A stretch of DNA of 64,000 bases, taken from contig OZ004608.1 of the NCBI GenBank assembly GCA_963924565.1, positions 12,214,001 to 12,278,000 on the forward strand, in the 5' to 3' direction. The notes beneath the pieces are model-generated. The model searched no databases. It had not been told where the DNA came from and worked only from the letters and a program-made list of their open reading frames with translations. Source of the DNA: Ascidiella aspersa. Its lineage: Eukaryota. Below, one piece after another: positions 26,774-61,605 of this stretch. The translations under genes and the position numbers were made by a program. Within the stretch, counting starts at the first letter, position 1, and each line of letters begins with the position of its first letter.

Positions 26774-26915
26774 TATAATAAAAAAAGTTACTCTGGTATA
26801 TATTTGTTAAACCAACGTTTCGGCTTACTATTCGGAAAGCCTTCATCACGGAATGACACCCATGCCGAAACGTTGGTATAGCAAATATATACCAGAATAA
26901 CTTATTTTTATTATA
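26774..26915. mobile_element. Inverted repeat (about 50-bp arms) containing a degenerate hammerhead motif; Penelope-like element end remnant
   Basis: The arm TATAATAAAAAAAGTTACTCTGGTATATATTTGTTAAACCAACGTTTCGGC has a near-perfect reverse complement. The minus strand reads GTGATGA-A-GGCTT..AAGCC-GAAA-CG-TT-GG. Confidence 0.7.
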
Positions 26916-29900
26916 TCACACACATATCAGTCAAAACAGTGAGGGATGAGGAAAATAACTATTAATCGGATTCGCCTTGTCCTTTCTGCCAGTCTTTTAA
27001 TTGTGTTAGGAACCGACGGATGCCGTTAATAAATAATTGACCAAATAAAATGTGAAGCTTTGATTTGCTTCGAAAGAATGGTTTTAGAGCTTCCTGATAC
27101 ATCTGAAAAAGTTGAAAACATTTACGACAATTTACGTTCTATTTAACCAAAACCTTTGCTCCCCTTACCATTTGTCAACGCAAAAACGGCCGAACGGGCA
27201 AGGTTAAGTTTCATCTATTATTTATTGGAAAGCACTCACTGCAGGCGAGCGAGCAATCCGATCGACAAGATATGACCAATTGCGTTCAATGCACACCAAT
27301 CATTGTTTTCTTCGCGTATCACAATCATTAAAACTCTGAAATATTTACTTAAAAACAATGCGTTTCGGGTAATTTGGGAAAATCAAGTTATAAAAGATAA
27401 AACTTTAGATGGACTAAAGCCCTAAAATGATTTAACTTCGTAATGTATACAACTTAAACAAAAGAAAAGAATAGCTTAACCTCAAAATGTAAGAATATTT
27501 ATATGACTCTATTGTGCAAATATTATATGAATAACCCGAAAGAAGGGGGATGTTTGTTACTTCAAATTAATCTGATAGCATAGCCTTACACATTTTATTT
27601 CACTATGATTTTATTTTCAAGAAGTAAATAAATTAACCCAGAACCAAAAGTATAACAGTAGTGTCAGGCGAAATATTGAGACATAATTATTCACAAGCAT
27701 CAGTTCAAGTTACAGTCGAGTGTTGTTGTATTCTATATGGACAAAAATACCTTCCCGAAATAATGTTGCAAAAAGTTACTTGCCACGACCGAAATACCTA
27801 TTTCAATTAGATATCGAGCTACCGCCGATGCCAGGTTGGTTTGGGATTAGTGGCGAGACTATCAAATATAGTATCAGGTATTGGACCTTGTTTGATTTTA
27901 TCACACAGTCGTTTCTAGGCGTACTTTCAAACCAATAACAATAAATATACTGTTGCTGCCAGGCATTGTACAAATTGTAAAACTGTTCATCCGGCAAAAT
28001 CGTATTAAAGTAATTACCCGAATAGCTGGTCGAAACGTTGGTAATTTTTACAGTAATGACAATAAGTTTTTTTTAACAGTAATAACAATGAGTCATGCTT
28101 TCGGCGAAGGATTGTAAACTTTTCGGGTTGTGACTCCGAGAGAACACATATTACACCTTATAAAAGCTCCATCGCATCACCTGCATGGCATCGAGCCAAT
28201 CTGTGGCGATCAATAACATGAAATAATCCACGGATTAGCATTCTACCAACGTTGCGTCAAACTGTTGGCAGTTGGCACCTACCTATAGATCGCTCAAATC
28301 AATAGACACAGTCGATTCGAAATTTATTTCAAACGTGCCATGCGTATAGGAAACGTTACAACGCTTGTCACGATTAAATATCCAGCCACTTCTTCGACTG
28401 TCGGAAGCGTTCGTCATTACACTGAACGAAAGAACAAATCCGCCGATTGCATATATTTGAACCAGGATGAATCAGAAAAGGAAAAACTCGAACATGGAAT
28501 TATAGGTATGTCTAAATCGATGAAAGCACCGCTTTTGCTAAAGCACAATTGGATTGCCCGAATCTAAAAAATAATATTACATTTTTGTTAAAAAACAACA
28601 AATACATTAGGTATAAAAACTTCAAGGTAATAAAATGGAATTAATTTAATACGAAAGTTAATTTGCCCGAACTTGCCAAGGTGTTAATTTTTTGTTTAAA
28701 TTACTGATTAAAATTTGTTTTCAGAAAAGCAAGCACCCCCTTTCCCAACATATAACTATTGTTGTAAAAGTAAAGTAGCCTATATGCTTATCCAGTTATT
28801 TTGTATTGATTATATTCGATAAGTATTTGTTAATTTCGTTCGCCAATAAATAGAAATACTGTTTTACCAAGTGTGCAATATGTCACCTAAAACAAACGTT
28901 TTCAGGTATATGTTTTGTCATTAGGTTAAAAACATATATTTGAGATAAAAATAAAACGTATTTATAAACCTTTAGTCAATTAATAGATTTCGCTAAAGAG
29001 GTTGTTCCTTATTATTTTCAAAAGTTTAAAGATATTTTTAGCATTTTTGTTTAAACTTTTTTATATATTATTATGTGTATGAGGCGCAAAACAATTACAA
29101 TACAATTAGGTTTCTTTTTTTATGATGTAATGTACGTTTGTCTTGTATTAGTAAACACTTAAGCGGGCAACGCAATAAGAAACGAAACGCTCTTTCGTTA
29201 CAAAATTCTTTATTGACACGTTCAAAGACAAATTCTTAACTTAGAATGCTTAAAAATTTGTGAGAAGATTTAAATCGAGTGGAAATAAATAATCGTGTGC
29301 ATTTCTAACCGCAAGCTAAATCGGTTGTCGGCAGAAAAAACGTTCAGATCCAATCGCCCCGTGTATATAGGCAAGCCTAGCACGGTATAACATTTCGTTA
29401 ATGAATGCTTGGGAGTTTATCGCTTGCAAGCACTTTAATTATTCATAATATTTCCTACACTAAGACGGTTAGAATACGCCGCGTTTGCAACTCGCATAAA
29501 TAGGAATATAATTCTGACGGATCATTGGTTTTAAATTCCATAAATCCAAGATTGAGAAAAATTGAACGCAGAAAAGGTTTTTACTGTTGGGTTCGTTTGT
29601 TGTCTCATTCAGTGTGACTCATTTCACGTCGCCAATCGTATTGCTAATAACGCTCAAAAACGCTGTGACTGAGGCGGTTCTGTTCATCTCGCCTGATATT
29701 TCGTGCAGCATTTAAAATTAGTCATTAAACAACAGTAAAATCGTTTCTAACCTGACAACATGGGCATCCACATCTCATTTTTGTGACCAGTTTAGTGGCT
29801 ATCATAACAAAACAGAGCATTTTTTTAAATAAGTTATTTTGGAGTTGAGGGCCTAATTTACTGTTGTCAGTACAGGTGCAATAAACTCGTCATGCATATA

Positions 29901-32900
29901 GTAGAACAAGTTAATCCGGGAGGCGAAATTTATTTGAACACAGTAAGTAAAATGTTCGTTAAAGCAATACACTGAAGTATTGCTAGTGGAAAATAGCTGC
30001 AAACAATTTGAAATCAATCCATGCTCGAAAACATTAAACAACTTTCTTCGCCTATCATTGGTCGCTGTACATCCGCACCTTTAAAGGCACAACACATAAA
30101 CAGCGGCGCCATTATCTACGCCAGTCGACTTTTGATGGCGGAGTATATGTGCCCCGCTCGACCGCCCTTCCGTCATTTGACAAGTATTTGTGGCGTCATA
30201 TCCTGGAAACTGGGTGAACGCCTGAGAGGGGCTGATCGAATGTCGCGTTTCGTGACGCAACAAATCAAAGCAAACCGTTGGAACGAAATAACATCGTCGT
30301 TAAACTGTGTAATCAATAGTTGGTGGAATCGTTTAACCTTGAACACAAAGCATAAACTGGTTTTACAATTTTTCGAATGAAAATCAAACGTTATCCCAAA
30401 ACTCCACTCAAACGTTCACACAAAAACTATTATTTTATGTTCTATATATTACATGTATTTGTAGAAAAACCCAGTCAGTCAAATTTATGCCTAAAAAAAG
30501 AATGTGTATTTATTATTCCCTTGTGTTCGCATTTACCCTTTTTATTCCACGGTTTAAATTAAAACTGTATTAGTTAAACAGAGTCCAAGGTTTATAACAC
30601 AGCAGCAAGCAACAGTCCCAAAGGAAACTACAAATGGCAACAAAACAGTAGCAAGTATTGAATGCAGTCTGCGTTTGGCGTGAACTTGTGGTCGTCCAAC
30701 AAAGTAGCAACAAATACCGAAATTCGTTACTGCGCGGCGCCGTTTCTCGAGGATCCGCTAACGAGATTTCGTGAAATATTTATGCGCCGAACCGTGAATA
30801 GGTCGATTGTTATCTGTCAATAAACGTCATGTCAGCGCCGGCTCTTCGGCCTTTACCGCCGCTCGTTGATTTGCGTAGGCCGGTAAAATAAAAGCCCAGT
30901 GGCATAAGCGCGAAACAAAATACCCTGCTTCGAATGGGTGAGCCGGACTTTCACTTTTCGAATTTTGGATAATCGTGGTTAGCATAACTGCACCCGATCG
31001 CACCTATCTGCGGCTTAATAGAATGGAAAGAAAATATGTAAATAAAGGTAAAATCTGTGAAAGTAAGTATTATCGATTTTTTCATGTGCTGGTTGTACGA
31101 AAGGGCTACTAAGTCTCTTACCTTGTTGAAACTCTGAAGGGGAAACGATAGAGTAGTTTATAATTAGCCTACCAAGTTACTTTGTGTGGTAGATACACAC
31201 AGGCAAAATAAATACAATAACCCCTGGGTGAGGCAATGCAAAAGTGCTGAAAGCTGTTTGCAGGCCGCACGTCTGAAGGATGCCAGCGATTGCAGCGTTA
31301 TGCAACAATCGGTGTTCAGTTCGTATACGGCAAAACGAAATTGCGAGCTCCTACCACAATTTAGCCGATCACTCCCTCGTTTTTAGCTGGAAAGCAGCCG
31401 ACCGGATTCTGATCGTTCGCTGCTCACCAGGCTAGATTGCTTCCTTTCTGTGCTGTAGGCGAGTTGCGAGATGATCCTAATTGAACCTGCGCCACTGGAA
31501 TGAAATGGCGCAAGGCTCTAATGAGATTGATGGGGTGTAGGGGTTTATTCGACGGTTATTGAAAGACGGTCGATTGGGAAGATTCCAAAAGTGGCCCGTC
31601 GCCACTTAACGAGCTTTTATTTTTTAAAAACTTTTACATAACGTCTAACGCGAAAATATATTTCAAACTCAATTCGCAAACAAATGTGGTCCCTTGGAAA
31701 AATTTTATTGGAAAATTAGGTTGGACAATCGATAAAGCTATCACCGTTCTCTAGCCTGCAAGTCTGTCTGGTTTGCGAGTGCACCACAGCTGTAAAAAAT
31801 GTCTTTACAAAAACGGGCGTATTGTCCTCTTTGACAGTGGGTGGCAATTTATATAATCCGGTAGTCTTTTGATTTCCAATATCCTACTGATCAACTGTAT
31901 CGCTTGACAAGTTTTTATACTGTTTTTAAGCGAGTGCCTTATGTTGGTTTGGAATTGATGTTTTTTTTCATTTTATTAATATACAGCAAGGCTCAAGCTG
32001 ACGGGATGTCTATAAATTAGCCGTTAGCCTTGACATACTGATGCATAAATTTAGAAATTTCAACCCAATGATTTTGATTTGTTTTTAAATTAATCGTCGG
32101 TAAATATATGGATAGGTAAATCGATTTTGGTTAAGCACACAAATGTTATCTAAAACGTCTATTTTTAGGTTTAAATAACATCGTCACAGCCAGCCAAAAC
32201 TACCTCAGTGATTATTTCGGTCTGGTATTTTATTCGCCGCGTGCTGTAAACAGAACAAGTCGCATAGTCTGTATATGTAAGTAAGTGTATATCTGTATTT
32301 TTAATAGTATGAAACTTAATTTCCTACCACCTTACGTGTAAGAGAATTTATTCACGGTATTTCAGGAAATAGATAGGGAAATAAAAGAGTTGTTTAAAAA
32401 AATGTCCCGCGTAAAGCGACTGCGGTAATGCGGTATGTTTGACACGTCTTGCAAAAGAGGCAATATTCAGCAAAACACAGCTAGCAACACACACACTGCA
32501 ACTCCTTATAAAGGAAATTCAATTTCCTGAAGTAATTCGTCATCTTGTTTTTGCTTTGAGCGCTGCATATCGACAATTCATGTATATAGTGACTTTCTTT
32601 TCTACAGTGTTTTGTTACTATAATACCAGATTAGCCTATATTTATTTTACTTAAAGTGCCACTAAATATTTAATATCGGTAAGCATTGCGGTAGCCCGAC
32701 AGTTAACGGCCAATGTTACTTTTCAAGTATGTTTATCTATACCTACGCATGTGAACAACTTTAAGTAATGTATAATTACTCAGTTATCTTATTGGTAGAT
32801 TGACAAAATAAGTGATGCACTTTCATAATCTAATTGTCTTCAGTCATTACTAATTAATCATTACCTTGGAAACAAATACCAGTTTGTAAACATTTTAGTT

Positions 32901-35900
32901 TGCGATTAAATTGTTTGGTTAAAGCGTCGTGTTAACCTTTCAACATTAACCTTTCAATGAAAAAATAATCGCTTAACATGATGCAAAACCATGGAATCAC
33001 AGCACCAACATCCAGTCTTGTAAACAGACCATTATGTAATGGTAATGAGTATGACTAATGTCCGGTTTTGTCAGTTTCAGTCTAATCAATAAAGTACAGT
33101 TGATAAAGCCAATGGCTTTTAAAATAAAGTGTTAAGCAATCAAATGATCATTAATAATTTTTTGTATAAGTAATTTTTCGCAAAAGTTTTATCGTAAATT
33201 TAAGGCGTTACGAACGTATGACATAATTGCATTGACGTAATTGACTTAAGGTTATTTATCTCTAGACATTGACTAAAGTCACATGACTACCGATAACTAT
33301 GTCAACTTTAAGGTTAAGAGCAAAAGTCGTATTTTCAGTACATCTTAAGTTTTGGGTGTTACCTTACTTCGAAAAGCGTATACGACTAGGTAAGTTTAGA
33401 ACTACATCTTCTGTTGTGAACGTTGTTCAACAGTCCATTATATCTTATCTTGGTGAAATGACGAGGTAATCAAGCGTGACCAAGTTGATAAAACTATCAC
33501 GCTTCATTGGTAAGATAAAAAAGGTCGACCTTTCGTAGATGTCCAAAGTGATAACTTATAGAAACACAATTCTCTTTAAGTAAATTGAGGTATGTTGAAG
33601 TAGAATAATAAACCCAAGAATATTGTAACATGACACGATCCCAAACAATTTGAAGGCCAAAGCGATAATACAACAGCTGATAGAGTCTCGCCAGACTAGT
33701 CAGCTCTTTAAATATTACTGGCCACGATCGAATTTTGAAGTTTCCAATAAAAGAATATTCCCGAAATGGCAGCACTTCGGTTGTTTAATGACGCAAGAAA
33801 AAAAATGTTTTATTTAATCTCGCCAATGTGATAACAACACGACGAGACATGCCCATTGCCCATCCATCCAAACGGATTGCCCTTTTTCTTATTAATACTG
33901 TAATTGGAGTCAAATGAAACGCGGTTATAACTATCTCAGCTTTAAATTTAAGGCTCATTACAACCGAACGACCTGTGTTTTCTTCTACATGTGGCAATAC
34001 CGATTTAATGTTAAACCCACCTGGTTTTTAATTAGATATAGAGTATTACGTGTTCCGTAATGTTCTTTAAGACGACTTACATTTTACCACAGAAAACTTT
34101 ATGACGTATGTGTAGGCTTTAGTGCAAATCCGAAACGTATGGGCTTATAAATACCAAATCGCAATTTCTCCTAACTTTGTATCAATATAGGCGGCGTCGC
34201 CAGTTTTCGAAAATAGCAGCATTGTGCCGCCTACACTTTTTGCGCGTTTTCCTAGCGGAACAATGTCCGCAAACCAAAACAGGCCTGCAGCGCGTCTTCC
34301 TTAATTCGCCGTTCGCCTCCGAAATCGCCAAACCAAGACTACAAAGGCGTAATGAGTCACGTGGTTTTGTTGCAGTGCAGATTTACGACGGCCCGATTGT
34401 CAGCCGACAATAGCTGATGTGCCACCAACCGTGACCCTTTCTCTTTCGTCTGGACGCCATATTCCTGAATGACGTATCGCGCTGTCGGTCGGGCGAAACT
34501 TGATGCGCGCTGGAAAAGGTGTTCCAAGCGCCAGTGTTTATTTTTCAAGTCAACAAAGGCGCTTTGGCAATTTGGCGACGTCGCTTGTTGTATGAGGCAC
34601 AAAATGCGGTTTTGCTTGTTAAAGTGCGCCGTATAAACGCGAACAAATATCCCAACGCATACAAATTTCAAAATTGTAATATATGTGAGACCTGTTGACA
34701 AGACCCTGTCATTTATATTAATTTTAAGTTCTTATTTGGACCACAAGCACAGGTTGACATGTAATGTTGCGAACACAAGTCCAAGAAAGGTGGAAGTGAA
34801 TTTGAAATAGCGGTTTCGTTTTCCCAGCAACCTCGGGGTGTATCCTTCGGCGTGAGGAAAATTAACGCTTTGCTTGTTGTGCTTAAATGTCAATTTTGAA
34901 GTATGCGTCACGCCGACTTGACTTCGTCGTCTCATGGCATTTTCGAAAAGCTCACGTCGATGGCATCGCTAAATATAAACGTAAGTCATTGCAGCCTATT
35001 ATTCGTAGTATTACGCTCTACTTTATTATACAGATTTATCTTTAGCAAGTAGTGGTCACTGTGCTTATATTTATTAGGAGTAACACAAATAACAATTAAC
35101 AATATCTTCTGTTTTAAATTTTTGTAGTCTGTTGTATAATGTCATTGTGTTGACGTTTGTTTGTTAGTCCTTATAAACAATGAAACAAGTGAATACCTAA
35201 ATTGGATTTTTTAATAGTAAGGGGAAAACTATTTGTCACGCAAGAACAATAGCTCATTCAAGGCTTGCCAAAACTGAACACAACGATGACCGAACTGACT
35301 CTAATTTTGTACTATGACTGGTACCAGATAAGAATCCGATATAGTTGGTATATTAGTTCAATGTTTCAATACAATTTGTCGTTATAGTGACATCTGATAA
35401 CCCGATAGAGTATGGTTCATCACTACCTAATTTATATCAAATATGAGAACAAGACCGAGTGACTTCACTTCGTTGGTAGAAGGGAAATAGCAATTTACGC
35501 GCGTAACGCATCAAGGGAATTAAAGAATAGCCCATTTGTGGGGAAACAAAAGACGAAAAAGTTGTACGGGGCGATTAAAGTGGTTCAGTAATCGATTTCT
35601 GAAGTTTCTCTGCGCGTAAATTAGTGTCGCCCGTGCCGCGAGTCCTATAATTTACTGCAATCAACATAATTCGGTTGCCCCCAGGCAAGACGAATTGCAA
35701 TGAGTGACCAGGTTGAGTCATCGCGTTACGCCTCGTTTTCGGCAAACAGGAGAAGTGCCACAGCAGCGGCAAATATTTACATATTTGTTTTTCTGAGGTA
35801 ACCACAATGACGCAAACTGAAAATGGCACGGACTTCGCTTTTTTGAAGTCAATGATAACGTTCCTGTTTCCACACGTGACATTGTGGCAAAAACCGTTGG

Positions 35901-38900: not shown

Positions 38901-39410
38901 CAAAGGTATTAACCACCGACATTAGGGCAGCAGATAAACCAAAAATACGTTGGCCAGTTAATGCGCTGTTAAAATAATGTATTAAAAGAACTATAGATTA
39001 CTGACAAACTAATTTGTTTGTAGTTAGTGACCAACGATAATTAATTTCGTAATAAACTTGAGTAAATAAATGTTTTAAAGGTAAAGAATACTTTTGGTGT
39101 GATGTGAAATTCCTGTTGCGATCTTTCCCCAGGGTACGTGTTGAATGAAAAAATGTTTCAACTCGGTAGTTATAACCAAGCATTAACTTGATTGGTGCCG
39201 ATAACCCGGAGCTTATGTAAGGATATCGGTGCGAGCAAAGACAATGCAACGAGTGGCCTGGATTTTGACGCCAGCCGTATACCACTGCAATATCCCGCGG
39301 TGATTGAAATGTGTGACTTCTGGCTTGTGCGCTATCTACAGTTGTCAGAACAAACAAACACCGATCAGGCGTCTCGGGCGAAATGTTGGCCTTCCGCAAA
39401 TAACTCGAAA

Positions 39411-39440
39411 TTAACCTTGCCTTTTAAATGGCAAGGTTAA
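39411..39440. repeat. 30-bp near-perfect palindrome bounded by TTAA
   Basis: TTAACCTTGCC-TTTTAAAT-GGCAAGGTTAA. Confidence 0.8.
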
Positions 39441-41719: not shown

Positions 41720-42004
41720 TACAAGTTAAATTGCGGCCGCCGCGTGTGTGGGGAAGCGAAAAACGTAGCAAGTCGACAGGCCATTGATTGGCAAAAGAAA
41801 TAAAGGAAGTGGCCGCAAGAGAGAAAAGAGCGCCAGGAGAAAAGAAGAAAACAAACGCAGAGAGAAAAACGAGCAACGGCTTACATTACACAGAGTGTTA
41901 TAGTGATGTCATTGTGCTCGATGGCTTAAGCATTTTGACGGCACAATGTAATAACGTCAGCGGTGATATGACGTTTTTTAAGTGGTTTAGAGTTTTCTTG
42001 AAAG
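41720..42004 (+). promoter_or_regulatory. Probable promoter and non-coding first exon of the ARID5B-like gene
   Basis: A GC/CpG-rich block (GCGGCCGCCGCG) is followed by CCATTGATTGG (inverted CCAAT) and an ETS-like AGGAAGTG. A purine-rich leader ends at a possible donor AAAG|gtgaag, upstream of the acceptor at 42579. Confidence 0.4.
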
Positions 42005-42821
42005 GTGAAGTTTGCAGGAAATTGTTTAGGACAGTTGCATGGATCATTTTTGTAGTTCAGGAATTTAGATTGTAAGCTAGATAAATCAGTTCATTGTTGG
42101 ATCGCCACGAATAGCTTTACAAATGTGATTTTACCAAGAAAGCCGGTACAATTTTACCTTGCCTACTTATACTGATTAGCACTCTACCCAGGATCAGGCA
42201 AATCAATTTTATTTGATTATAAACATGTTTGATTAATAATTAATATTGGCAAATGACAATATTTTATAAATTATTAAATTTAGATTTTTGTTAAGTTTAG
42301 TGATCTTTAAGTATTGTAGAAACATAGCTGGTATGATATAATTTCATTTTATCCTTTCTATAAATTAACTAGATTAGGTCATACAATCCGTATCACTTAT
42401 TTAAGACATTTGAAACCAGCAAATAAAGTTGACATAAATTGTTTGCTTACCATGTTTAGTAAAAGGAATGTTTTTCAACTGGTATAGCGATTAATATTTT
42501 TCAAAATGTGGTAGACCAGGAATTTAACAATTTTAAACATGTTCAAACACGAACTGTTTTATTGTGTTTGTGTACGCAGGTTTCACGTTTCCTGTAAGGC
42601 AAATCAGATGTACGAAATAAACTGGATTAGTTTTGAAAATGTCACATGCGAACGGATTATCTGAAACTGTTTAGCTTGGATTGTCACCTTGGCAAAGGCT
42701 TGAAGGCCTTTTCCCCGTCTGCCCTGTGAAAGGAAAACGTCAACATATACCGAAAGTTGTCCTCTCTCTAAATTGAGGAGCGGAATTGCGCCCAAGAGAA
42801 GCAAAGAAACAGAAAAGAGAA

Positions 42822-42887
42822 ATGGCGAGCAGACATCAGAATGCCCACTCGAGAGCGAACAGCGGTTCTAGAACCGACGCCGTCACG
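42822..42887 (+). CDS. ARID5B: Probable first coding exon of ARID5B-like gene (MASRHQNAHSRANSGSRTDAVT)
   Basis: The ATG is in aaaATGG context and 22 codons end at a phase-0 donor ACG|gtaatt that joins in frame to the exon at 45333. There is an upstream acceptor (gtacgcag) ending at 42579. Vertebrate ARID5B also has a short first coding exon before W-V-G. This exon has no sequence similarity of its own. Confidence 0.6.
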
Positions 42888-44929: not shown

Positions 44930-45084
44930 GTGAGTTAGTTTGATAAACAGTTACTGGTTACAGGTTAAAAATACGGTTACCCACGAAAAATAAAATATGT
45001 GACAAAATTTTTCGTTTTACGCACACTTTTTTCTAGTTGATAAGTGAGTTAGTTTTATAAACAGTTACTGGTTACAGATTAAAA
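44930..45084. repeat. 41-bp direct repeat, two copies 114 bp apart
   Basis: GTGAGTTAGTTT(G/T)ATAAACAGTTACTGGTTACAG(G/A)TTAAAA occurs at 44930 and 45044. Confidence 0.85.
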
Positions 45085-45332
45085 TTAAAAAAAGTTTCAC
45101 TTCGATACAGCGTCTCATCTTAAATATTTTGAAAATTTGGTTTGAGTAGACCAAAGTTCACCGGTCGACATGTGACGACACCACTTGACATTTCTTGTTT
45201 CGCTTTCCTTTGTGCAGGCGATGGACTCATAAGCGCCCGTGTGTATATATCCATACATATATAACGCATTACCTTGCGCTTCTTGTTTGGGTTCAAACCT
45301 AGCCGCTGACAATAGCACGTGTGATGTCACAG

Positions 45333-45710
45333 TGGGTCGGCGGAAGTTGCGGCAGACACGGGTCGTACGTCTTCTACAAGGCCTTCCGATTTCGCCTGGC
45401 GCCGCCGGAGCCCAGCACGCCGACATCGACGGGTCGGAGCCGCACCAGAAGGTCCCTGAGCACTCGCAGCGACGAGCATCAAGAGGAGGTAGCTCCGGAG
45501 CGGGAGTCAGGACATAGCTCTCTCATCCAGGAGCGCATCTTGTCCCTTGGCGAGTTCTTCTTCGTCCAATGTCGCCCCGAGGACCCGGTCTGTGTCGGGG
45601 AAATCCAGCTTCTGTGGCAGGACAAGCACTCCGGTCAGGACCTCGCCTCAACCCGCCTCTATTACCTGCCCGAGACCACGCCGGCCGGACGAACTTCCCA
45701 ACATGGAGAG
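45333..45710 (+). CDS. ARID5B: ARID5B-like (AT-rich interaction domain 5) N-terminal BAH-like exon, 126 aa; the gene continues beyond the window
   Basis: WVGGSCGRHGSYVFYKAFRF..RILSLGEFFFVQCRPEDPVCVGEIQLLWQD..LYYLPETTPAGRTSQHGE matches the ARID5B N-terminus (WVGSPCGLHGPYIFYKAF..RILSLGDFFFVRC..LYFLPEDTPQGR..HGE). It is bounded by cacag| and GAG|gtaagg. Confidence 0.92.
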
Positions 45711-48700
45711 GTAAGGAATTTGTGTGTACCGGAAAATCCATGGGCCAGTTATTCGGTCACTTTGTTTTTCTTTAACTTGATTTTCTAAGAACCTACTTGG
45801 CCGTTTTGAAAAATTGTTTATTTTCGAAATTGCATAGGTCAGTTTGAACAAACCACCTCAGCCAGTTTGCACTGTTTAAACAAAACGAATCCCCCTCGAT
45901 AAGGCATTGAATTAGTGTGTATTCGAAATTGCTTAGGTCAGTTGACGTTTGGCCACATAATTTCGAAAAAAGCTGCCTTGGCCAATTTGCACGCCAAAGC
46001 GAATCCCCGTTGTTTGCCACTGCAGTGTTTTTGGCGAGCAGGCTGCTTTTCAATTGACCATGTGAACTGCTACATTGTTCTGTTTACGCGTGCTGCCCAG
46101 TTGGTGCGCTTCAAATTTACAGCAGCCGGCGTTTAAACGGTGGCCATAAAACAGACCGACTCGCGCACGATTGTTCTGAATTTTCCAATCGCAAAATAAT
46201 ATCGCCAGCAAGCAACTTCGCGCCCCAATTAAACCTGTGACTGTTTTGTGGTTTTATCTTACCCAATCTGGACAATAGTTGGCAATGTAGTTAACAACCG
46301 ATCAGGTCATCTTTAGGCAATGTTATAGGTCAACTGATGGTTTTGTGGGTTAACAATACCTCCCCTTATAAAGCGGCAAACCCTTCGAAATGCCATTAAC
46401 ATATCGTCGAAATAACTCCCATTCAAATTCCTTCCCGCCGATACAAAGGGAACTCAGGCGCGCTGCTATAAGTGCGTATATATCAAACGGGTCGTGAACC
46501 GGTTACGACAAACGGGATTAGTAAAGCTGTCGGATTGCGGCCATCAGCTTGCCAAATCTGTGCCTCTTGAACGTCATGCAACGCTGGGATTTGTTTTCTG
46601 AGACAGCGCCTTCCTCGGGCACAATTGCGATTTCGCCAAATGAGGCGTTGTCATCGACTAGCGGCTTTCCGCAAGTGATTTAAATGCGCCTGGCGATTCC
46701 ACGTTTGTTTAGCGCCGAGGTTCGAAAAGAATTTCGAAAATTCCGCTTATCACCGGTTAGCATTAGCACAAAAAAATACCTTTAAAACGAAACAAGATTT
46801 TCTAATTTCCATGATCTTTATCTCGTTCGCTTTTTTACAGGCGCGCCCGTTAAAAGTAAATAGATTAAAAGTTGTTTGACTTGGCGCAGTGCTGAGAGAC
46901 ATCTCGCGGCCTGGCGCTATATCTGCCGTTCGACTTGTAATATTGAGAATGTGTAATGCCAATGTCGCCTTGCGGAAGTGTGTTCTGCCTTTCGGTCGTT
47001 TACAGCTTTTACGGCTGCGCTTCCGAATGTGTGACTGTGCTTATCGACGGTACGCGAGACGCGTTATCTGCTGTGGAAAGCCCTTCAGCACTGCTTCACT
47101 AAACAGACAGTGCGGTCCTTTGCTGACCGCCGATGCATTATTCATACCAAGTGTGCCCGGGGTAGCTTTGCCGGTTTAAATGTCCACTATTATGTTACGT
47201 GCTCCAGCTGATGTTGCTCGGCAATTTTCATTCCTTGATTTGTTTAGGTTGGCCTACATTTGCGCTTAGCGACCGATGGCAAGCTAGTTAATAACGCATG
47301 CGGATTAATTTTAATCGCGTAATTTCCTTTGGCATGCAAGTTACTTTGCTTTTTCGCGGGTAGCTACTTTCCCTCTTTCGTGGAGGCTTGTTTACTCGTT
47401 TGTATAATGTTTATGTTACTGCAAAATTTACACTTATATACAATTTTGCTGTAATAAATGAGTTTTTCAGCTATTTCGGAGTATTTTAACTATTTTTTAT
47501 TCAATAAACTGTACAGAATAGAAGGGAGTTTTTGTTGGTACGCAGTAAGCATTCGTTGTTGTTAAGCGAAAATAATGCAGTTGTCCTTGTAAAAGAATGT
47601 TTACGGCGAGAAACTTGTTTAAAGACCTCGTTAGGGCCGAAGTCAATTATTTGACCGGGTGGCTCTTTAATATTTAATCATTGACGAACGAATACATACA
47701 CATGTAAAACATTGTCTCTAATCCAGCGCATTTCATGCGTACTTTTGCCCATGTCACGTCGTCTTAACAAATCTCCATTTAACTTGATCCCGATCGATTG
47801 CACTGGAAAGATTTCCAATTGGTCTCGCAAGCTGTCAAATTAAAACCCGACGCCCAAAAGTATCTCGCTTTTTCAGCCCGTCGCGCCCGCAACGAGCGAA
47901 CAAGCTTTGTCTGTTTGCTCGCTGTGACGTCACAGCGCAAAGAAAACGTGGCAGTTGCGATAAACCGGGCGTAGTGGCTTCTTGCGTCGTGTTTGTTAAA
48001 GCAAGTTTGCCGAAAAAAACGCGATGCCCGGCCTTAATCTGGTGCCGCGCGCAGGTTTTGGACTCCACCGAACTAGGAGTGTATAATGGCCGCGCCATAT
48101 CGCACTTGGAAACTGAACGTTCACAGATCGATCAATATCCCGTCGGCACCACGATCATTACCGTGTTGTGCCGCGGCCTTTCTAATTGTGTTTTCCAATT
48201 TAAAACATATACGTCGTTTAGCACCAGGCTTCGTCGAAATTCTATATTTCAAGGTCTCGACAAAGGTTCAATGTCCACCTCTTCTCCAAAGCGCCATAAC
48301 TCATCGCGCCACGGCGGGGAACATTTATTGCAGCCGGGTTAGTCACTGCGGGTTAAAGTTGATTTTATTGACGACCCTCGTCAGCGATACGTGGTAATCC
48401 TGGTGTCACCTGGCGCTTTTTACCGCACAAAGCTTTTTGCCACTCGACGCTTTGCCTGGGCGTCCAAGCGAGACGTTCTGTTAGCCGAAATTCGAGACTG
48501 GTCGTTGTCGTGTTTTTTCCTCTCCCATCGAAATTGCCTCGATTCTCTTTCGCCTTTTGACTTAGTAAAATTTTTCGTCCAAAGTATTTTCATTGCGCCC
48601 GTCGAAATTTTTGGGGTCACGTGTCTTTTGTTTTAATGCTAAATTGTGATGTGTACATCTCGTTCTTGCGGCATAAAAATAAAACGTTGTTTTTTTTAAG

Positions 48701-51700: not shown

Positions 51701-54700
51701 TCGAGACACATTTCGCCTTTTGCCGCTTTCGGCCTGGCACTTGAAATTAGTCGATTCTTTCAGGTGCCTCAGCTCTTGTTGTTGACGTTATGGGGGCGAA
51801 ATAGCGCCACGCTAAAAACGCGTATTATTACCATTTCAAAGCGTTCGGATCTCACCGTCCACGCGATTTTAGCGCGGCGTTGAAACAACCCTCATTCGTT
51901 TAATGGCGTAATTCGAGCCTATACCGATATTTATCTTTCGAATTTAAGCGCCGCGATGTTATTTTGCCTTTAAAGCGACTTTAGAATAGCGAGGCAGTTT
52001 TAACAGCACGTACGAAAAGTAGCAGGCCGGTGATAATTTGCGCCGTGAATTCCCTGTAGAAAACACTTGTAGGGCACAATTCCAACACGCTGCGGGTTAG
52101 AAGCAATCCAGGGTATAGACATATTCCGCATGCGTTGATACCGCCTGGACTCTGACTCTCTTGTATTGATTTGTTCAACAGGCGACGGCGTGCGGTTAGC
52201 AACACTATTCAATAGCTTGGCCATCCGGTTTAATTCCAATAAAGATTCGCCGCCGCCGTCAGATGTGGGAAGCGTTTAACGCGGCTTCTGATTTCGTTTC
52301 CTGTAGTTTTACGTTTCGAGGGTAGTTTACGAAATGAGAAAAAAAACAAATGGCGTTTTGTTTTTTTTTCCGCTGCAGTTTTTTCTGCGAAATTCCTCGA
52401 TGAAAGCTTACAAAACCTTATTTAATAGCATTTCGCTCCTGGCGCTAAAGCCTAGTTTGGATGATGGCGCAATTGTTTCGTATCACGTGAAGCGGGCGAT
52501 TGTCTAAAAAACTCCGTGAGCGCGAACTCTGCGTCATGTAATTTCGTTGAATGACAGTGCGAGATGTGGCATCTATTGTGCTTGCTGTCTCGTGATGAAC
52601 TAATAAATAGACAAAACGCTGTAAATCATTTTTCCTCCATTAGCAGCAACGCGTGGGTATTTTCAACGTACAATTTTTCAACCGTGAACATCGTAATGCC
52701 TATGCTTCAAGTGCGATTTGTGTCGGTTTTGTGCAATATCCAAGCTTTATGCCCACAAGCCGCCGACGTGACCCAAACGGATTAGGTTAAATCTCCTTTC
52801 CCTGTCGGCAGATGAGTGCGCGCCACTTATTTATTAGCGCCAAGGTCCACAAGGGTTCGCCATTTAATTTGCATAGTAAATCGGGCCCGCTGCCCAAATG
52901 GCCGCTAGACATGTCGCAATGATTAGGCCAGGAAGCGAATGTCGACTTCCGCGGCGTACAAAAGTGGCAAAGGGCTGTTCAAAAGTCCAACCCAGCTACC
53001 TTTTTGTTGCCACACCGCTGACGCCTTGAAAATCACAGAATTTTTGTGTTGCTACTTGGCTTGCGGAGAAACGTGAAATACGTGGCGTTTTTCGGGATTT
53101 AGGCGGATTAACATTGTTCTTCTCAGTTTTTACGCGAATCCAATCGGTTATGTCTCGTTTGACGAGAAAAGGGATTGATAGTAATTTGTGAGGCTAACTT
53201 CTGATGTCGCGCGCTTTTATTTCGAATCCGAACTACGTCACGTTTCCCTCTTTTGACGTGAGTCAGTGTTTTACTTCACCAAACCCGTCTTTGGATGTTG
53301 ACGTCAGAAATTGACGTTCCGCTCACTGCCCACGCGCGGTCAACCGCAACGAAGAGAATTTTTTTGGCTAAAACCGAAGGACGATTTGTCACACTTTAAG
53401 CCGAACTTGAAACCGCTAATCTCCGAAATGCGCTTATACGGCAATTTCGCGTGGCCAATCTAAGGCTGTCCCAAATTTTTCCAAGTCGTCGCCCCGTTTA
53501 GTTTTTTCAAACCTTGTATGAAATTGGCCCTTCAAATTGTTACGCGGTCCCCTGTTTTGGAATGCTTATTCTAATTTTTTTAATTATTTAGGATCACTTA
53601 ATATTCTGCCATTCCAAAAACAACAAGTCGTACAAATGCGGTTTGGCGTTTAAACAAAATCGAAATAAGCGAAGCCGAGCCGCGATTTTCCGCGTGCCGC
53701 CGGAAAAGGAAACTCTACGATTCTCCACGCAGAGCTAATTATAACGATCAGTTTACGCGAGAGAGCTTTATGTGTCGCGCTACTTGTGTACACACCTTGT
53801 CCCCTGTCGCCGCGCAGCTCCGCGTTGCCTGACAATACGTCGGCTCCTCCCCCTTGTTTCTTTACTGTCTGCCCAACTGCGCCTTTTCAGCCAGCTTGCG
53901 TTGTGTGCGCCGCGCAGGCCAGGAGAACTTCTTTGTTTGAGGCCGCTTCGCATATTTGCCGATTTTGATAATGCGCATATCGGGTAAAGGTGATTTCGGC
54001 TTTAGTTTGCAATTTCGCTCCATATTTAGTAAAATGACTTTAAAATAGTTGCTTTGCTGGTAATTTTGTGCTCTTATATTTGTAATATCAGCCAATTTTC
54101 ATTATGATCGGCCAATTTTTTAATTTTTTTGTTGTAGTTTTACCTGTTTTTACCACATGTTGTATAACCGTCAAAGTGATTATAGTTAATTAGGACATCC
54201 GCAAAACTAACTTTAGTAGTATTTATTTTTGTTTTAAAATTCAACAAACAAAGCGGTGATATGGCCAACTACAGATCTAAAACAACAAAAATATTGTTCA
54301 CCCTACACACTACATTCTACATTGTTCCTTGTTCGATCGCTGAGCAATCGGTATCGAATCGTGATTTATTGTTATTGCCGTGAAGTTTCTGCTTAAGAAA
54401 ACCCTATTCTTGTGCGAGTAAGCGGTTCGTGCGGTTTTGTTCGACGCAAAACGAGAAAGATTGCTCTTGCTCCTCTCGTTTTTCCTCCCCCGAGAGGCTT
54501 CTTGGCTTGTCGGCCAAACGTTGCTGGTGAAATCCCCTTAACCTTTGCAGAGGCAAAGCACAAGTGATTAATGAAATGCCGAGGCTCCGCTCTAATGTTA
54601 TGTGTTTCCGCATTTGGTTTACTTGATTTAAAACTCGAAAAAAAACTATGAACACTGCTGCACAGTTTAAGCAGCTAGTTGACGCGCTTAATAGTTTCAA

Positions 54701-56846
54701 CATTAATTACCCTTGGTACAATTTTTTTGTGACGATTTAAATTCGAAATTAATATTTGGCGACTTAACATTAGTCTTATGAAGCAGCTGCTAACGATTTA
54801 GCCTGTAAATATGGGCGCTTTTTGTCGAAATGAACTTCCCGTGATACAATTCGATTTCTCTATTTATTTTTTTATGTTTTTGGCATATGCTCGGTGGGTG
54901 CACGAGCGCATTTGTTCTCGAGCCGAGCATTGTTGCGAAACAATCAAAACGCCATCGCCCCGGCGGTCACAGATGGTTGCGCTTTCAATTACGCCGAGAG
55001 AATCTTTCCCTGGCTCTGTATACATCACACAGTGGCCATTGTGATGTCGGCTCACGATTGGGGTCGCCGGCCGAATTTAATCCAACCGATTAGTTTTGCG
55101 CCGTTCGAACGAAATCGACATTAAGTTGCAACACGCCAATTTCAAAAGCGTATACATACGCGAATTGCCTTATCCTGTTGCGCGAAAGTTCAAGTCGCTG
55201 TGGAAAATCGGTCGCCTTTTAAAACGATTGATGAATTTACCCACGAAACGTCGTGCAATTGGGCTGTGCTCGGAAGCAATAAATGGCCAACGATTTGCGT
55301 GGAACTCTCCGCAAACCCAAAAGCCCCTCGGAATCGCGCAGTCAGCACCAAAACGAGCCTGTCGCACGATGCGCTTATGTCGTACAAATGGCAATGCTGT
55401 CCGGTTGCTGTCTTTGCGCTCCTAACACCGCCGCGCTCAGGATAAGGCAGATATCCTGTTGGCGGATTGCGCCTGCCAGTTTGACAGCGACAGGACCTGC
55501 CACTGTAAACATTCGCACTGTAATGTCACGACTATGCAAATACGGCAGGACCCCGCTTTGTATAAGAGCCTTGCTGTAATTTCAAAATCGTATTGTGGCC
55601 GCGGTGTGAAATTGAATGGCCTGGGAAGTACGTCGGTCAAAGCGGAAAACAGCTAACTACTAGAATGGTCGTTAAACGCTTTTTCATAGCTTCGAAACTA
55701 GGTTGACATAGGGTTGTTTGCTTACACATTTACTTTTTTTGTATAAATGTCGGTTGTTTGCTTAAGCCTTTCCTGTACGAGAGCGCCTTTCATTATTACA
55801 TAAAAGAACCACGAGAGGCTGAATAGATCAGAAGCTATTAATACTGTTGAGCCATAAACAGAATTATCAGTTCTGAATTTAAAAACAGTAACCCTCTCGT
55901 CAATCCTGCCAGTTGATACGGTCACTTAAATAACGTTTTTCACATACGCTCGCAGTCGCACACCTATCACATAGTTGCTGATTAACTCTCTGTTTGAACA
56001 GAGAGTTGTTGCAATCGGTTTAAGAACAAGGTATTCGATTTGATTAATCATGCAGTAACGACTTGTAATTCCTTTTTGGCGTGCTAAATTTTTACAATTT
56101 TTTTTTTTAATTTAATAATGTTATGAAATCAGTAGTATCACTTGTAAGCTTATATTTTAAAAGTAAGTCAATAAAATGGATGGGTATGCATTAACATAAC
56201 AAAACTCATTTATTCTACGAGGGAGGAATTTGTGTTGAGGTGCTTTTTACAATTCTTATTCCCAACAACAGTAGGCTATTCGGCATCCTGTACAGCCTGT
56301 GTGTAGTATACAAATATGTTATTATCTTGTGGTCGGTCGCGTTTTAAAAGCGTTTCCCCGCGCGAGTCCTAACCTCATTTTGCACGTTTCATTTTCTTGA
56401 CGCCTAGGATTACGCCAAGAATTGTCTGCATTGCAATTTCCGTGAACTGAACTGTGCGCACACAATTTATTATACCAGCGCGTTGGCCGAAGCCTGTATT
56501 CGCGTAACTCCCACTTTGCTCTATTCTTCCCTCCCATCTCCAGGCAGCCTTATCGCAACTTGATACGCTTTGCGGTTTCCAACTCGCTCGGATAGTAGTT
56601 GATTATCTCCCGTCGTTTTCCACAAGCTCGACCAGTTGCCATCCCGAATTAACTCGCTTTGTGCTTGTCGGCCCATTATATGTGACGACACGCGTATTAA
56701 CAACCCCGGCTATTTATTATTAGTTTACGTGTTGTTCCAAAATAGTCATCTCCTGGCACAGTTTCGTTTTTGTAAAGCAGTAACGCCGCAAATAATCGAA
56801 TTGAACCTTTGGAGCATAATTTTGGAGGTTTTAGTAAGACGTAAGG

Positions 56847-56970
56847 AGAATATCAAAGCCCATACAGAAGTAGGTATCATTTTGAACGTTACGAATAACT
56901 TTTTATTCATTTTCAGAGTTATTCGAAACGTTTAAAATGATACCTACTTCTTTATGGGCTTTGATATTCT
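56847..56970. mobile_element. Inverted repeat (about 54-bp arms) with decayed hammerhead motif; Penelope-like end remnant
   Basis: The arm AGAATATCAAAGCCCATACAGAAGTAGGTATCATTTTGAACGTTACGAATAACT has a near-perfect reverse complement. The minus strand reads CTGAAAA-T-GAATAA-AAAG-TTATTC-GTAA-CG-TT, and the other arm retains GAAA. A partial third copy lies at 59611-59638. Confidence 0.65.
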
Positions 56971-57058
56971 TATTGCGAATTGAACCTTGTTTGTTGATTT
57001 TGCAACATATGTTATTTAAAGTAACGACGTACTCGTTATAGCAGAAAGTTTGTGGCGA

Positions 57059-57086
57059 CGTGTGTGTGTGTGTGCGCGCGCACACA
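57059..57086. repeat. (TG)n(CG)n(CA)n alternating purine-pyrimidine microsatellite
   Basis: CGTGTGTGTGTGTGTGCGCGCGCACACA. Confidence 0.8.
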
Positions 57087-60000
57087 ACTGTGACGTCTGT
57101 ATTCTGTCGAGTGGGCAAAACCGAATATCCCCAGAGCGCTTTGAACGAGGACGCGATACACGCAACTGAAGGGCGGCATGTGACCCGACATGCCAGAATC
57201 TTGTATGTGCTGGTTTTATTGTCTCGGCGCCCGTGTTTGTTTAGCCCGAAATCCGTGTTTGCCTTTCTCATTTAACTGCTGCAGATAAGGGCCGAGTAGG
57301 GCTGCTTTTAGCGCGTCGCGTCGTTTATAATTAATACGGCCGGACGGGGGACCGCTTGGCTGCCATTAGGAAGGGGAAAGCACGGGAAGCCTTGACGGCG
57401 AGCAAAAATAGTAGCAAGGCCCTTAGCGCTTTAGTAATGCAATACTGAAATACCACAATGGCGTCTACCCGTGTATCACGCGTGTTGCAAATTTCGGCAT
57501 AACGAAAACCTGTTTGCTGTCTAACTGTAAGTATGGGATTATGGTCGCTATTTTCATCCGGCGATGAACCGTAAGTGGTTTGACATTTTTATAGCGCCGA
57601 AGTCGCGTTTTGTGCCTTTTTAACGCCGCGCCCCAAGATTTGAAGGCTTGCAAAAAATCTCTTCTACGACCGCGTCTGCTTATTTTCGTACTTGACCGAA
57701 CAGGCCTGGCAGGTGCCTTTTGTACCCTTGGGCGACAACGTTCGACGCGCAAAGAATAGTTGATTCAATTGCGGCCGGTTTTAAACCCGTTTAATTGGAG
57801 AGCGTTTGTAAGAAAGCGAGCCGAACATGTGGCCACTTTTTCCGCGAAAAATACCCAAGGGTGTGCTTTGTGCTTGTTGACGGCCGTTTCTTCAGGAAAT
57901 GTGCTCGCACTAACCGCCGCGATGCGTTGCATAAACAACAGTCGGCATTCTGTAAAGGTCGCGCGACCGCAGCGAAACGGGGCCGCGCGCAGACTTGGCC
58001 TTTGCCATATAGAATACTATAGTTGCGCAAAATAAATCATCAGTTCCGCTTAACAATTTAATTCAAATGTATCTTTGATGCATTGTGTTTCAATTTCATG
58101 CTTGGTGTTATTTCACTTTGAAGGTTTTTTTTTATTTGCGCCACAAATATTAGCACACCACCGAAGTTAAAATCGTGTTTAGCAACTATTTCTTCGAACA
58201 TCCACCATACCATGGCTAAGATACAAACTTGTTTTTAAAATTGATGACCTGGTAATGGAATTTCCAAACACAATGCCTTATAGGTTTAGGTGCACGATAA
58301 AACAGATTACATTACCACCATTTTTGGCAATTGCCGTTTATTTTTTTTTCACTCCTAAAACTTAAAAAAAATCATGTTTCTGTGTCGTTTTATTGCTGCC
58401 ATGAGGCTATATTCCGATTTATATATTTTCGTAACGAATTGTAAAAAAAACGTCTTATCTTGCAACGGGTGGCCTTGGCAAGGAACGCAAGATTTCAGCC
58501 CGCGGCTATTTTCTTGCCGCTACAATGACGTCGATTTACTGCAATTACGACGCGATAAAACTCGAAGCCATTTATTTTAATCTAGGTATACGTACGCTTT
58601 CGTCCGTTTTTACTTTTCGACTTGGGCCACGGTTTTGTTTCGTCGATGCGCATCTCCGCTATTTATACGGATTCGTAATACGGATTACTTTTGGCGGGGA
58701 TAGTTTAAGTGTCAATTCATTAGACATTGATATGCATACAATAATAACATTTGAATTGTAGCATAGCGCGAAACAAAAATAATTTCACGATCGCATTTTG
58801 AAACGTCAAGCAATTTCGAACTTCCATTTGCGCTGTGCACAACATTCATTAATACAACAAGCCGAAGATTTATATTTTTAGTTTAATTACCGCAAATGGC
58901 TCTCTGCTTCCTGCAATAATTTCGGGCAGGTTTAGCATTTCAGATTCTAGGATCGGTGCATTCCCTAACGTGACTAACCTCACTGAGGAATCAGTCATCG
59001 CTCGTCAGAAATGTTTCCAAAATCGTGTCTGTTCGAAAACGCTCACGCCCTTTTGTATCCGCAGCATATTTTCGATTTGACGTATGTTGCCAAAATGTGA
59101 AGAAATTAACGCGTTTCTTTGAATTGTATTTATCTTTGGGTCAGCAAAGGGTGTTTCCGTTAACTGAATCGAATCCTAATTTGGAATTTCGCCATTCTGC
59201 GGTTTATCAATATTATCGCATGAGCAAAATGAAGTGTACTGCCAAAGGCGAAAATATCTACAAATGTAAACTGCCAAAACATCAGGCGTGACTTTACGGC
59301 AATTTGTGGTGGGCGGCTTGTGCTAGGCTAGGGTCAAATAGCTACAATCTAAAAACAAGCAGCATCAAGTGCACGGCATACTTGACACACTATCGTCAGT
59401 GTTTTTGTTCTCCAGTTAAAGTGATAAGAGCCTCTGGTGTAAGACTCAGCTTGCCACCGACCGGCTTGCTTTCCTGGAATGGGCCCGGCGAAATTATTTA
59501 ATCCCGCGTCTGTCGACCGCGGTGCTTTATGTGTTGCGAACGTGTAGCGAAGGAGTAGGCAATTTTTAAATAACACATTTTGAGTCGTTCCACAATTTCA
59601 AGCCGTTCTTAGTATCAAAGCCCATACATAAGCAGGTAACAACCAGTCTCCATTCATTTTTGACGTGTTTATTAATATGGTAATCGATACAAATTGGTAA
59701 CGTTTTGCATATTTGTTTTATATTCGACCTTGTTTCCAAATTCTACACCAACAATTGTATTCTGTACCAAAAAGTTACATTTCAATCAAAAAACGTTCAA
59801 ATTCAAAATCGTTTTAAATTTATTGCCATTACCAAACCGGTTGGCTGGATTTAACTTTTAAGAAAGCAGCTCCAATCGTTTTTTTTAATCCGACAAAGCT
59901 GTAATTCTTGCCTATAGGCTGTTTTGCCTGAGAAGGTTGATAAAGCAAACAAACGATCGCAGTCGCCAACGCTCTTGCGTCCCACGCATCTTTTGCATCC

Positions 60001-61441
60001 AACACTTAATGCAGGCGTACACGCCAGCAATACACAGTAGCAACGGGGCCTATTAGTGGTTTACGCCTAACACACGCAGCGGTTGCATGTGCATAGCACC
60101 CGTTGCAGTTAGACGTGCGGAAGACAGGCCGGAAATAGCTCGTTTTTAAAAGGTCAAATGAATTTGTGCCCGCGGCGCTATTCGCGAACGTGAATCGGCG
60201 CCGTTTTAAAGTTCGATTTCAATTTTTTGATCGTGCTGTGTTTTTTCCTTTTCGTGTGTTGCTTTTTATTGCGATTGTCGAACGAAGTTGTTACGTCGGC
60301 TTAAAAGTGTATTACCGAGTAAAGAGCAATTTTAAATTGTTTCAGAACATGCATTTTCAGAATATAACACAAAAATGAAAAGCTTTTATTTAACTCATTT
60401 TTAGACATGCTTTGTCATTTATTGAAATGAAATAACGCCATTTCACTGTTTGGTGTTTCACGTAAACAGCCAAAATATTTCCCAGTCGAAATCCATTCAA
60501 GCTGGCACTGGCAGCCAAGCAGCTGAACGGCGTTATTTATTAGATCTGCCATCCGTGAATAGCAACGGCTCAAACGGGCGAAATTTCACCTCGCTGCGAA
60601 AAATTCCCCGGCTCCGCCTCAGCGAGCAGATGCCTTTGTGACGTCACAATGAAAAGAGAGGGTAAACCCTTTAGTGAGCATCAATTCCAGTCGGCGTCCT
60701 TCACTTTGTATTGATTCGCGGCTCGAGCAATGCGAAATAACTGCGGTAATTAGCTAGATTAAATTGCCTTGTATAGAAGCGCCCACTGCCACACCATTAC
60801 ACTTCCTTTGAAAGGCCCCGATCAATTAATCACAACAAACGGTGGTAAGCAGTTTCCCTATATTAGCCGCCTTTAATGTTGCAGGTTTTCTGTTGTTTTA
60901 TTGGTAATACTAAATGTAGCATTGTCAATTTTTTTATCGCGTTTTGTTTTAAAGCTTGGTGATTTAATATAAAATGTTGTTTGATAAACCGATTTGTCAG
61001 TGAACAATGCTTTACTTTCAAGTCAATTCGAAAAGCGAAAAGTGTCGAAAAATTGATACACGCCATCAATCTTTTGTAATCCAAAGCAAACCGAGCTTCG
61101 TTTTTCAAACACATAAGATGTTCAAACAGGGCAATTTCGAAGCCTTCGTAATGGCGTACACTGTACACGGCTTGCTTCTATTAAGCATCGCCACCGAACG
61201 ATTGTGAGTCAATATTTGATCTCTTTCTGTGCGCGTTACGTCACTGGCGCTCCGCTTGTGCGCTACACAAAGCCCATTGTGACGTGTAAGCGGAAACCCG
61301 GCGAGTTGCTGGTGATAATGGATGAGAAGTTTTGTTTTTAGAACCTGTGTGGGCTTGGCCGCCGCGGGTTTTTTTGACAGACTTCGATTTAGTTATCAAA
61401 TTTGATTCGGTTATCAAATTTGAATAAAAATTCTAAACCTT

Positions 61442-61605
61442 TTATGTTTGATAAAATCGACGTTTCGCTGTTTACAAACGTTTCAGCAATACCTATAAAA
61501 ATACAAGTGAAGACAAGTGACTTTACTTGTATTTTGACACTGATGATGGCATGAGGTATTGCTGAAACGTTTGTAACAGCGAAATATTGATTTTATCGAA
61601 TATAA
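61442..61605. mobile_element. Inverted repeat (about 70-bp interrupted arms) carrying a hammerhead motif; Penelope-like end remnant
   Basis: GATAAAATCGACGTTTCGCTGTTTACAAACGTTTCAGCAATACCT pairs with AGGTATTGCTGAAACGTTTGTAACAGCGAAATATTGATTTTATC. An inner pair is AAAATACAAGTGAAG / CTTTACTTGTATTTT. Confidence 0.75.
61537..61574 (+). ncRNA. Minimal type-I hammerhead ribozyme motif (Penelope-type)
   Basis: ACA-CTGATGA-T-GGCA(TGAGGTAT)TGCT-GAAA-CG-T-T-TGT gives an intact core, a 4-bp stem II, a palindromic AAACGTTT stem III region and a 3-bp stem I. Confidence 0.65.

Follow-up and report, generated by a model that had tools for sequence, protein, structure and literature searches.

A 64-kb window of the Ascidiella aspersa genome (contig OZ004608.1, positions 12,214,001 to 12,278,000; "the window" denotes this whole stretch) holds three short inverted repeats, called A, B and C below, and raises the question of how hairpins of different sequence came to share one architecture. 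A preliminary description had tentatively attributed the shared layout to a recurring break at stem-loop II of a hammerhead ribozyme. The three repeats, which are the longest inverted repeats of the window, are head-to-head pairs of 3' ends from three different families of Penelope-like elements (PLEs). Family identity, the pairing of one long with one short arm, target duplications of 11-12 bp, arms that cross the cut site of the ribozyme and, in family B, a 5' end that is fixed and marked by a G were all observed; the strict long and short pairing and the G-marked end beside the ribozyme are the most notable of these. Each hairpin is probably the product of one insertion, in which two 5'-short PLE ends arose by dual internal priming on a capped, uncleaved RNA followed by run-off.

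Family positions take the predicted ribozyme cut site as their origin, 0 being the first base after GAAACGTH; the first base of the catalytic core lies at -36 in family A and at -32 in families B, C and D. Families A, B and C are those of the three window elements, and family D, a young relative of C, served as an outside test. All three window elements were dispersed repeats (463, 1590 and 691 candidates at first look), and a 22-nt motif of family B had 1451 exact matches against 0 for a reversed-pattern control. Tracing copies upstream reached DNA coding for reverse transcriptase (RT) and a GIY-YIG endonuclease (EN) in families A, B and C. Family B contained an intact 843-aa RT and GIY-YIG frame between two ribozymes 2666 nt apart (L233, L234), with Pfam matches to RVT_1 (2e-9) and GIY-YIG (7e-4, below the Pfam cut-off). 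Family C adjoined RT/GIY-YIG sequence in L237 and L246, and both domains were found in L237. The coding link of family A ran only through L030, where the family was joined to an endonuclease C-terminus with 78% identity over 64 aa to L414, and L414 itself, an RT and EN copy of a sister subfamily with weak Pfam matches (0.03). In family D an intact 848-aa frame (L232) encoded a protein 43% identical to that of B and had its start codons inside the ribozyme core; ribozymes flanked this frame as in B, a partial tandem that forms pseudo-long terminal repeats (pseudo-LTRs). Among the fetched loci this layout was established for B and D, with no full tandem fetched for A or C, and in both B and D the reading frame started at or within the ribozyme. 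Inspection of the RT-EN linkers of B and D revealed no cysteine cluster. The preliminary description was right in supposing several PLE families that have minimal hammerheads and leave inverted ends. The stubs derive from autonomous PLE families and the elements themselves are ordinary PLE debris; the separate non-autonomous, retrozyme-like families offered as an alternative were not shown.

Nine family or subfamily ribozymes kept the core and a stem II of 4-9 bp while their letters differed, and stem I measured just 2-5 bp. The features of the minimal hammerhead, namely the core, a stem II with G10.1-C11.1, palindromic positions 15.2-16.2 and a short stem I, were all found. The three families had been called unrelated, which holds for A, B and C at the DNA level but not for the ribozymes of C and D, which are similar.

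At least three more PLE families with their own minimal hammerheads were seen (L240, L241, L243, L245, L248 and L020:1640-1765), two of them with a TATA-like box 35-41 nt upstream of the core. Loci of family D included L231 (C7:11.29 Mb), L232 (C3:20.86 Mb) and L235 (C3:10.88 Mb). A cluster at C2:35-36 Mb (L004, L010, L011, L013, L021-L023, L027-L029) was rejected as the parent of family A, being a repeat unit of several kb that carries one A stub inside it; L004 contained no long reading frames.

Arm ends were sampled by motifs downstream of the ribozyme to keep the layout from biasing selection, and the counts rest on the first 100 matches listed per motif, short of the whole genome: 97 fetched for A (of 186 matches), 96 used for B (of 1451; chromosome C1 only), 83 for C (of 434; 16 presumed subtelomeric duplicates left out and 1 filtered) and 82 for D (of 315). 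Rows that repeated an insertion already counted, either as its second arm or as a duplicate, were dropped (24, 27, 26 and 26 across the four families), leaving 76, 77, 74 and 66 insertions in A, B, C and D (293 in total), 188 of which were inverted pairs (A 36, B 53, C 53, D 46). DNA-similarity matches, which favour inverted copies, were kept out of the breakpoint counts unless they were also pattern matches, and L104 and L289, which have a common junction, were counted as a single event.

In each of the four families the outer ends formed two classes separated by about 30 nt. Of the 170 pairs that could be classified, 159 combined one long, tailed arm with one short arm (A 30/34, B 48/48, C 36/43, D 45/45), about twice the random expectation, so that the 30-40 nt tail characteristic of PLEs stood at one end only. 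Target duplications of at least 7 bp were detected at 143 of 292 insertions (B 50/77, D 45/65, A 25/76, C 23/74) compared with 3-6% for shuffled flanks, and their length had its mode at 11-12 bp in B and D. Most insertions consisted of two stubs only, with a median of 137-192 nt, and 105 of 293 had a single arm. Both arms carried the same subfamily mark (at -1) in 31 of 32 B pairs (p=6e-8; all fetched B loci, similarity matches included). Junctions mostly showed either an overlap of 0-3 nt or a filler, with overlaps of at least 4 nt in 17 of 188. Among the longer fillers of B and D, 15 of 26 copied sequence beside the junction, compared with 5% after shuffling.

Family B had a fixed 5' end. 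Of its 130 arms, 58 ended at -33 to -37, chiefly at -35 and -37, which places the end 3-5 nt upstream of the core, and the base 5' of these ends was G in 45 of the 58, though the parent has T at both places; at the other B ends the corresponding base was G in 11 of 51 (p=4e-9). The letters before the G were unrelated between copies (AG 8, CG 8, TG 19; n=35), and both B subfamily marks were present among G-ended arms and in long copies. At L400 the order was target duplication, single G, element, and at L113 and L160 two G-ended arms abutted. A TATA box, TATATATA, begins 32 and 30 nt upstream of the two ends (-35 and -37). Splicing or trans-splicing at -35 was rejected, as the parent has no acceptor AG and the upstream letters were not common to the copies. 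Structural stalling would poorly explain an end at -35, because the polymerase should have copied the 3' strands of both stems earlier. The pile of B ends is likely the result of reverse transcription up to the capped 5' start of the RNA. A literature search, whose reach excluded supplements and the older subscription papers on how PLEs are built, found no description of a G copied from the cap in these elements.

For family D, a pile of ends at -42 +/-2 with an accompanying G was predicted beforehand. The position was as predicted: nine ends fell within -40 to -44, at 0.047 compared with 0.011 per nt (4-fold, p=6e-4), and the top sliding windows of D ends lay in this interval. In family C, which is old, a rise at -39 to -50 adjoined an initiator-like motif.

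Several observations weigh against reading these piles as copied RNA starts. The second half of the D prediction failed, since G preceded only 3 of the 9 ends, not above background, and the D pile was far weaker than that of B. The rise in family C was broad and lay in diverged sequence of low complexity, and family A had neither a pile of ends upstream of the core nor a TATA box. One RNA run, of which about 6% was read, yielded no reads that connect the pseudo-LTR with the frame, and the starts of its molecules did not pile up; it contained only host transcripts carrying stubs, whose loose ends at -35 are the same genomic signal and not start-site evidence. Some templates may have been cleaved, as B ends are weakly enriched at the cut site (10 ends, uncorrected p=0.004). 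The agreement of arms in B could also mean that a single source locus was active or that the arms underwent gene conversion, and the samples are the matches listed, those of B from one chromosome. The case for cap copying, strong in B, is partial in D; it stays open in C and has no support in A.

In the mechanism that we propose, the RT/GIY-YIG protein would cut both target strands, and each cut strand would be primed at a different one of two internal sites on what was likely one capped, uncleaved RNA. Transcription of this RNA from the pseudo-LTR promoter is predicted to begin 3-10 nt upstream of the hammerhead core, which would place the priming sites only about 80-130 nt from the RNA 5' end. 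The complementary DNA (cDNA) would either run off that end, copying the cap as G, or stop earlier at about 1% per nt. End joining would then unite the two cDNA ends, through microhomology of 0-3 nt or with the help of short templated fillers, as the overlaps and fillers at the junctions suggest. Breaks would fall in the ribozyme because it occupies most of this short stretch, without any redirection of the polymerase by stem II. Long copies would arise by priming at the downstream pseudo-LTR. Ribozyme cleavage as the dominant source of 5' ends was rejected: 337 of 481 arms crossed the cut site, and an excess there was weak and confined to B. The broader proposition, that the commonest PLE product here is a cap-terminated double cDNA made by one RT-endonuclease dimer from one mRNA by two primings at the tail boundaries and joined head to head, seems to us evenly balanced.

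An identical junction was present at L104 and L289, where about 40 nt of reading-frame sequence beyond the tail was joined to a G-ended arm. This arrangement suggests a template jump from the RNA 5' end and later recopying.

The alternative that survives best, though we hold it unlikely, concerns the fixed end of B alone: a short non-autonomous master RNA that starts with G, or non-templated addition at a processed, uncapped end. The shortness of B insertions (74 of 77 were 250 nt or less), a G signal that is clear only in B and the recurrence of one junction type at two loci (L104, L289), which indicates that stubs can be copied again, are compatible with such a master. It is harder to reconcile with G at both -35 and -37, with both subfamily marks in G-ended and in long copies, with the want of any common sequence upstream of the G or of an AG acceptor in the parent, and with a TATA spacing that suits a start site.

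Self-priming on an antisense template, as proposed for head-to-head copies in the relevant passage of PMC3846280, appears improbable. Some junctions were indeed short palindromes (L113, L160, L157), and those overlaps of 4 nt or more could be ascribed to it. However, the palindromes are two abutting G-ended arms, most junctions have 0-3 nt of overlap or fillers, and the G sits at the 5' end of the sense strand; internal priming on the sense strand, on both DNA strands, has been demonstrated in vitro according to the portions of PMC11167929 concerned.

Slightly more doubtful still is the mechanism of the preliminary description, in which template switching or self-priming of the polymerase at stem-loop II sets the inversion point. 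All three window short arms align from within stem-loop II, and family B had 0.0129 ends per nt at risk there compared with 0.0050 in the tail (2.6-fold, uncorrected p=0.01), an excess that is small next to the 29-fold peak of B directly 5' of the core. No excess was seen in A (0.009 in stem-loop II, 0.018 in the tail), C (0.010, 0.014) or D (0.010, 0.011), and the pooled rate of the four families was no higher than in the tail (55/5123, 0.0107, compared with 91/8184, 0.0111; p=0.86), on which ground the hot spot was rejected. Junctions spanned +47 to beyond -900, and folding back of a hairpin would leave the tail difference between outer ends unexplained. A pile of family A ends at +5 was a reference artefact, caused by a subfamily that differs just upstream. 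The layout also failed to recur genome-wide: an arm started in stem-loop II in 47 of 188 inverted insertions, and the exact layout occurred in 30 of 188. The chance of finding a stem-loop II layout in three of three window elements is about 1.6% per window, a mild coincidence that is expected many times in a 308-Mb genome.

Cut-and-paste miniature inverted-repeat transposable elements (MITEs), with which the elements share short length, an inverted structure and flanking target duplications, can be dismissed almost entirely, as the ends are unequal, the centre differs in every copy, many copies are single-arm (105 of 293) and the sequence runs on into RT/GIY-YIG frames.

Among known systems, the closest are the PLEs with an endonuclease (EN+), such as Penelope of D. 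virilis and Pen2a of Adineta vaga (PMC3846280; scheme in PMC8557442), which have an inverted pseudo-LTR and a tail. As described there, they share with the window families 5'-truncation, an inverted copy at the 5' side, a one-sided tail of 30-40 bp and short target duplications, and their pseudo-LTR likewise contains TATATATA and an initiator-like motif. They differ in that the Ascidiella insertions are mostly two stubs, and the passages on known PLEs give no 5'-end map and no untemplated G. Promoters of PLEs have been located in the pseudo-LTR (PMC2377424, PMC3846280, in the sections concerned), and very short PLE insertions, of median 128 bp, are mentioned in PMC9977147. The minimal hammerheads of metazoan PLEs, as set out in the pertinent part of PMC4209133, share with those found here the absence of helix III, palindromic 15.2-16.2, an extra base after position 9, G10.1-C11.1, the U3-A8 variant and pairs of opposite-strand motifs 100-700 bp apart. 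That account proposes cleavage and circles as templates; here, in contrast, most arms cross the cut site and B ends lie upstream of the core. The minimal PLE hammerhead including U3-A8 and the opposite-strand pairs (PMC4209133), and the inverted, one-tailed layout (PMC8557442, PMC3846280), are therefore already published, as those passages attest.

The passages of PMC11167929 on PAc, a Poseidon element of Anolis carolinensis studied in vitro, report that the protein cuts both strands of AT-rich DNA and extends both, that RT starts at two internal sites bounding the tail, that uncleaved RNA is used and that a dimer is predicted. PAc resembles the present families in a reading frame that starts within the ribozyme and in its two internal RT starts bounding the tail; the pairing of long with short ends matches two starts about a tail apart together with cutting of both strands. 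In contrast, the work used synthetic RNA, and those passages do not address inverted pairs, the pairing of starts per insertion or the 5' end of natural RNA. In LINE-1, an untemplated G is an accepted sign of cap reverse transcription (PMC9341517, in the portion consulted), and a single G between the target and the first transcribed base and a pyrimidine-purine start are features common to both systems. There the G marks rare full-length copies, whereas here it would mark the commonest product, of 80-115 nt, because priming lies near the RNA 5' end. Non-LTR retrozymes (bioRxiv 10.64898/2026.07.22.740005, in the passages at hand) have Type I hammerheads related to those of PLE pseudo-LTRs, but form head-to-tail arrays with a ribozyme per unit; the window elements are head-to-head stubs of coding elements. 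The one array of family A that was seen, at L332 (C1:4.322 Mb), repeats the tail region (+2 to +69) five times, head to tail and in units of 89 bp, and has no ribozyme core.

The origin of the inverted ends and one-sided tails of PLEs is described as unresolved in the relevant passage of PMC8557442, and the in vitro study of 2024 does not settle what happens in later steps. The mechanism is constrained by the copy statistics, with a long and a short end per insertion, a common source for both arms, a stagger of 11-12 nt and, in one family, a cap-like G at a fixed end beside the ribozyme; the same counts can be made wherever a genome contains young PLEs. If the proposed mechanism is true, stubs would be a fossil map of PLE transcription starts, and a ribozyme in the first 35-45 nt of the mRNA, mostly uncut in templates, would act by cap removal. 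PLE stubs also risk being misfiled as MITEs or microRNA hairpins.

The three window elements exceed the bounds first given them (A 26753-26915, B 56807-56977, C 61417-61663), because the long arm continues into a tail of 30-35 nt that had been missed. Every arm of the three ran from G(A/T)AACGTT into a family-specific tail, just as first described. The claim that only one arm carries the core and the other resumes in stem-loop II fared differently in each element (Table 1). In A the short arm does start in stem II, and the ribozyme of the long arm is likely inactive, judged from the change of C3 to G in its core. In B the claim does not hold: neither arm has a whole core, the apparent CTGA was created by the junction, and the family core is TTGAAAA (U3-A8). 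In C the plus arm has an intact core and the short arm aligns from -18 as claimed, but the symmetry centre lies upstream of the ribozyme because the 26 nt between the arms copy upstream family sequence; this piece is an internal deletion of the short arm or a templated filler, which are not separable. No clear target duplication was found at C. A script scan of the window for minimal hammerheads with at most one core change, made without a shuffle control, gave two matches, both within the named elements. An Rfam search returned no hammerhead match, its best matches being sub-threshold miRNA families, and the ribozyme fold did not stand out when single strands were folded (z 0.15 to -1.4), which is no surprise in a motif that lacks helix III.

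Table 1. Features of the three head-to-head PLE elements in the window, with arm limits in family positions.
Feature	Window coordinates	Strand	Remarks
Family A target duplication, 12 bp	left copy 26740..26751, right copy 26913-26924	+	
Family A long arm, -51 to +67, with tail	26753..26864	-	5-nt deletion
Family A minimal hammerhead in long arm	26849-26814		C3 of the core replaced by G
Family A short arm, -11 to +41, without tail	26864..26915	+	begins in 3' strand of stem II
Family B target duplication, 13 bp	left copy 56797..56809, right copy 56976-56988	+	
Family B long arm, -31 to +79, with tail	56807..56915	-	lacks U3 of U3-A8 core; GTAA replaces GAAA
Family B short arm, -18 to +45, without tail	56915..56977	+	begins in loop II
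Family C short arm, -18 to +60, without tail	61417..61494	-	
Family C junction piece, 26 nt	61495..61520	no strand	copies family positions ~-52 to -35
Family C long arm, -50 to +84, most of tail present	61521..61663	+	core of minimal hammerhead intact (61540-61571)

The window has a fourth head-to-head stub at 27934-28090, older than the others and belonging to a subfamily related to A. Its tail lies on the minus strand (27934-28000), and its plus arm contains GAAACGTT at 28032. A 29-nt piece of family B lay on the minus strand at 59613-59641.

Host exons at 1451-1909 (-) and 7313-7660 (+) matched the MARVEL domain and the sodium bile-acid symporter family in Pfam. The exon at 45303-45788 (+), for which Pfam gave no match, is presumably similar to a BAH-type chromatin protein. 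Other dispersed repeats of the window that were common to the fetched loci lay at 2497-2673, 6985-7192, 14363-14673, 15010-15488, 15605-15796, 16403-16624, 21990-22203 and 63247-63369, and some of these had terminal inverted repeats.

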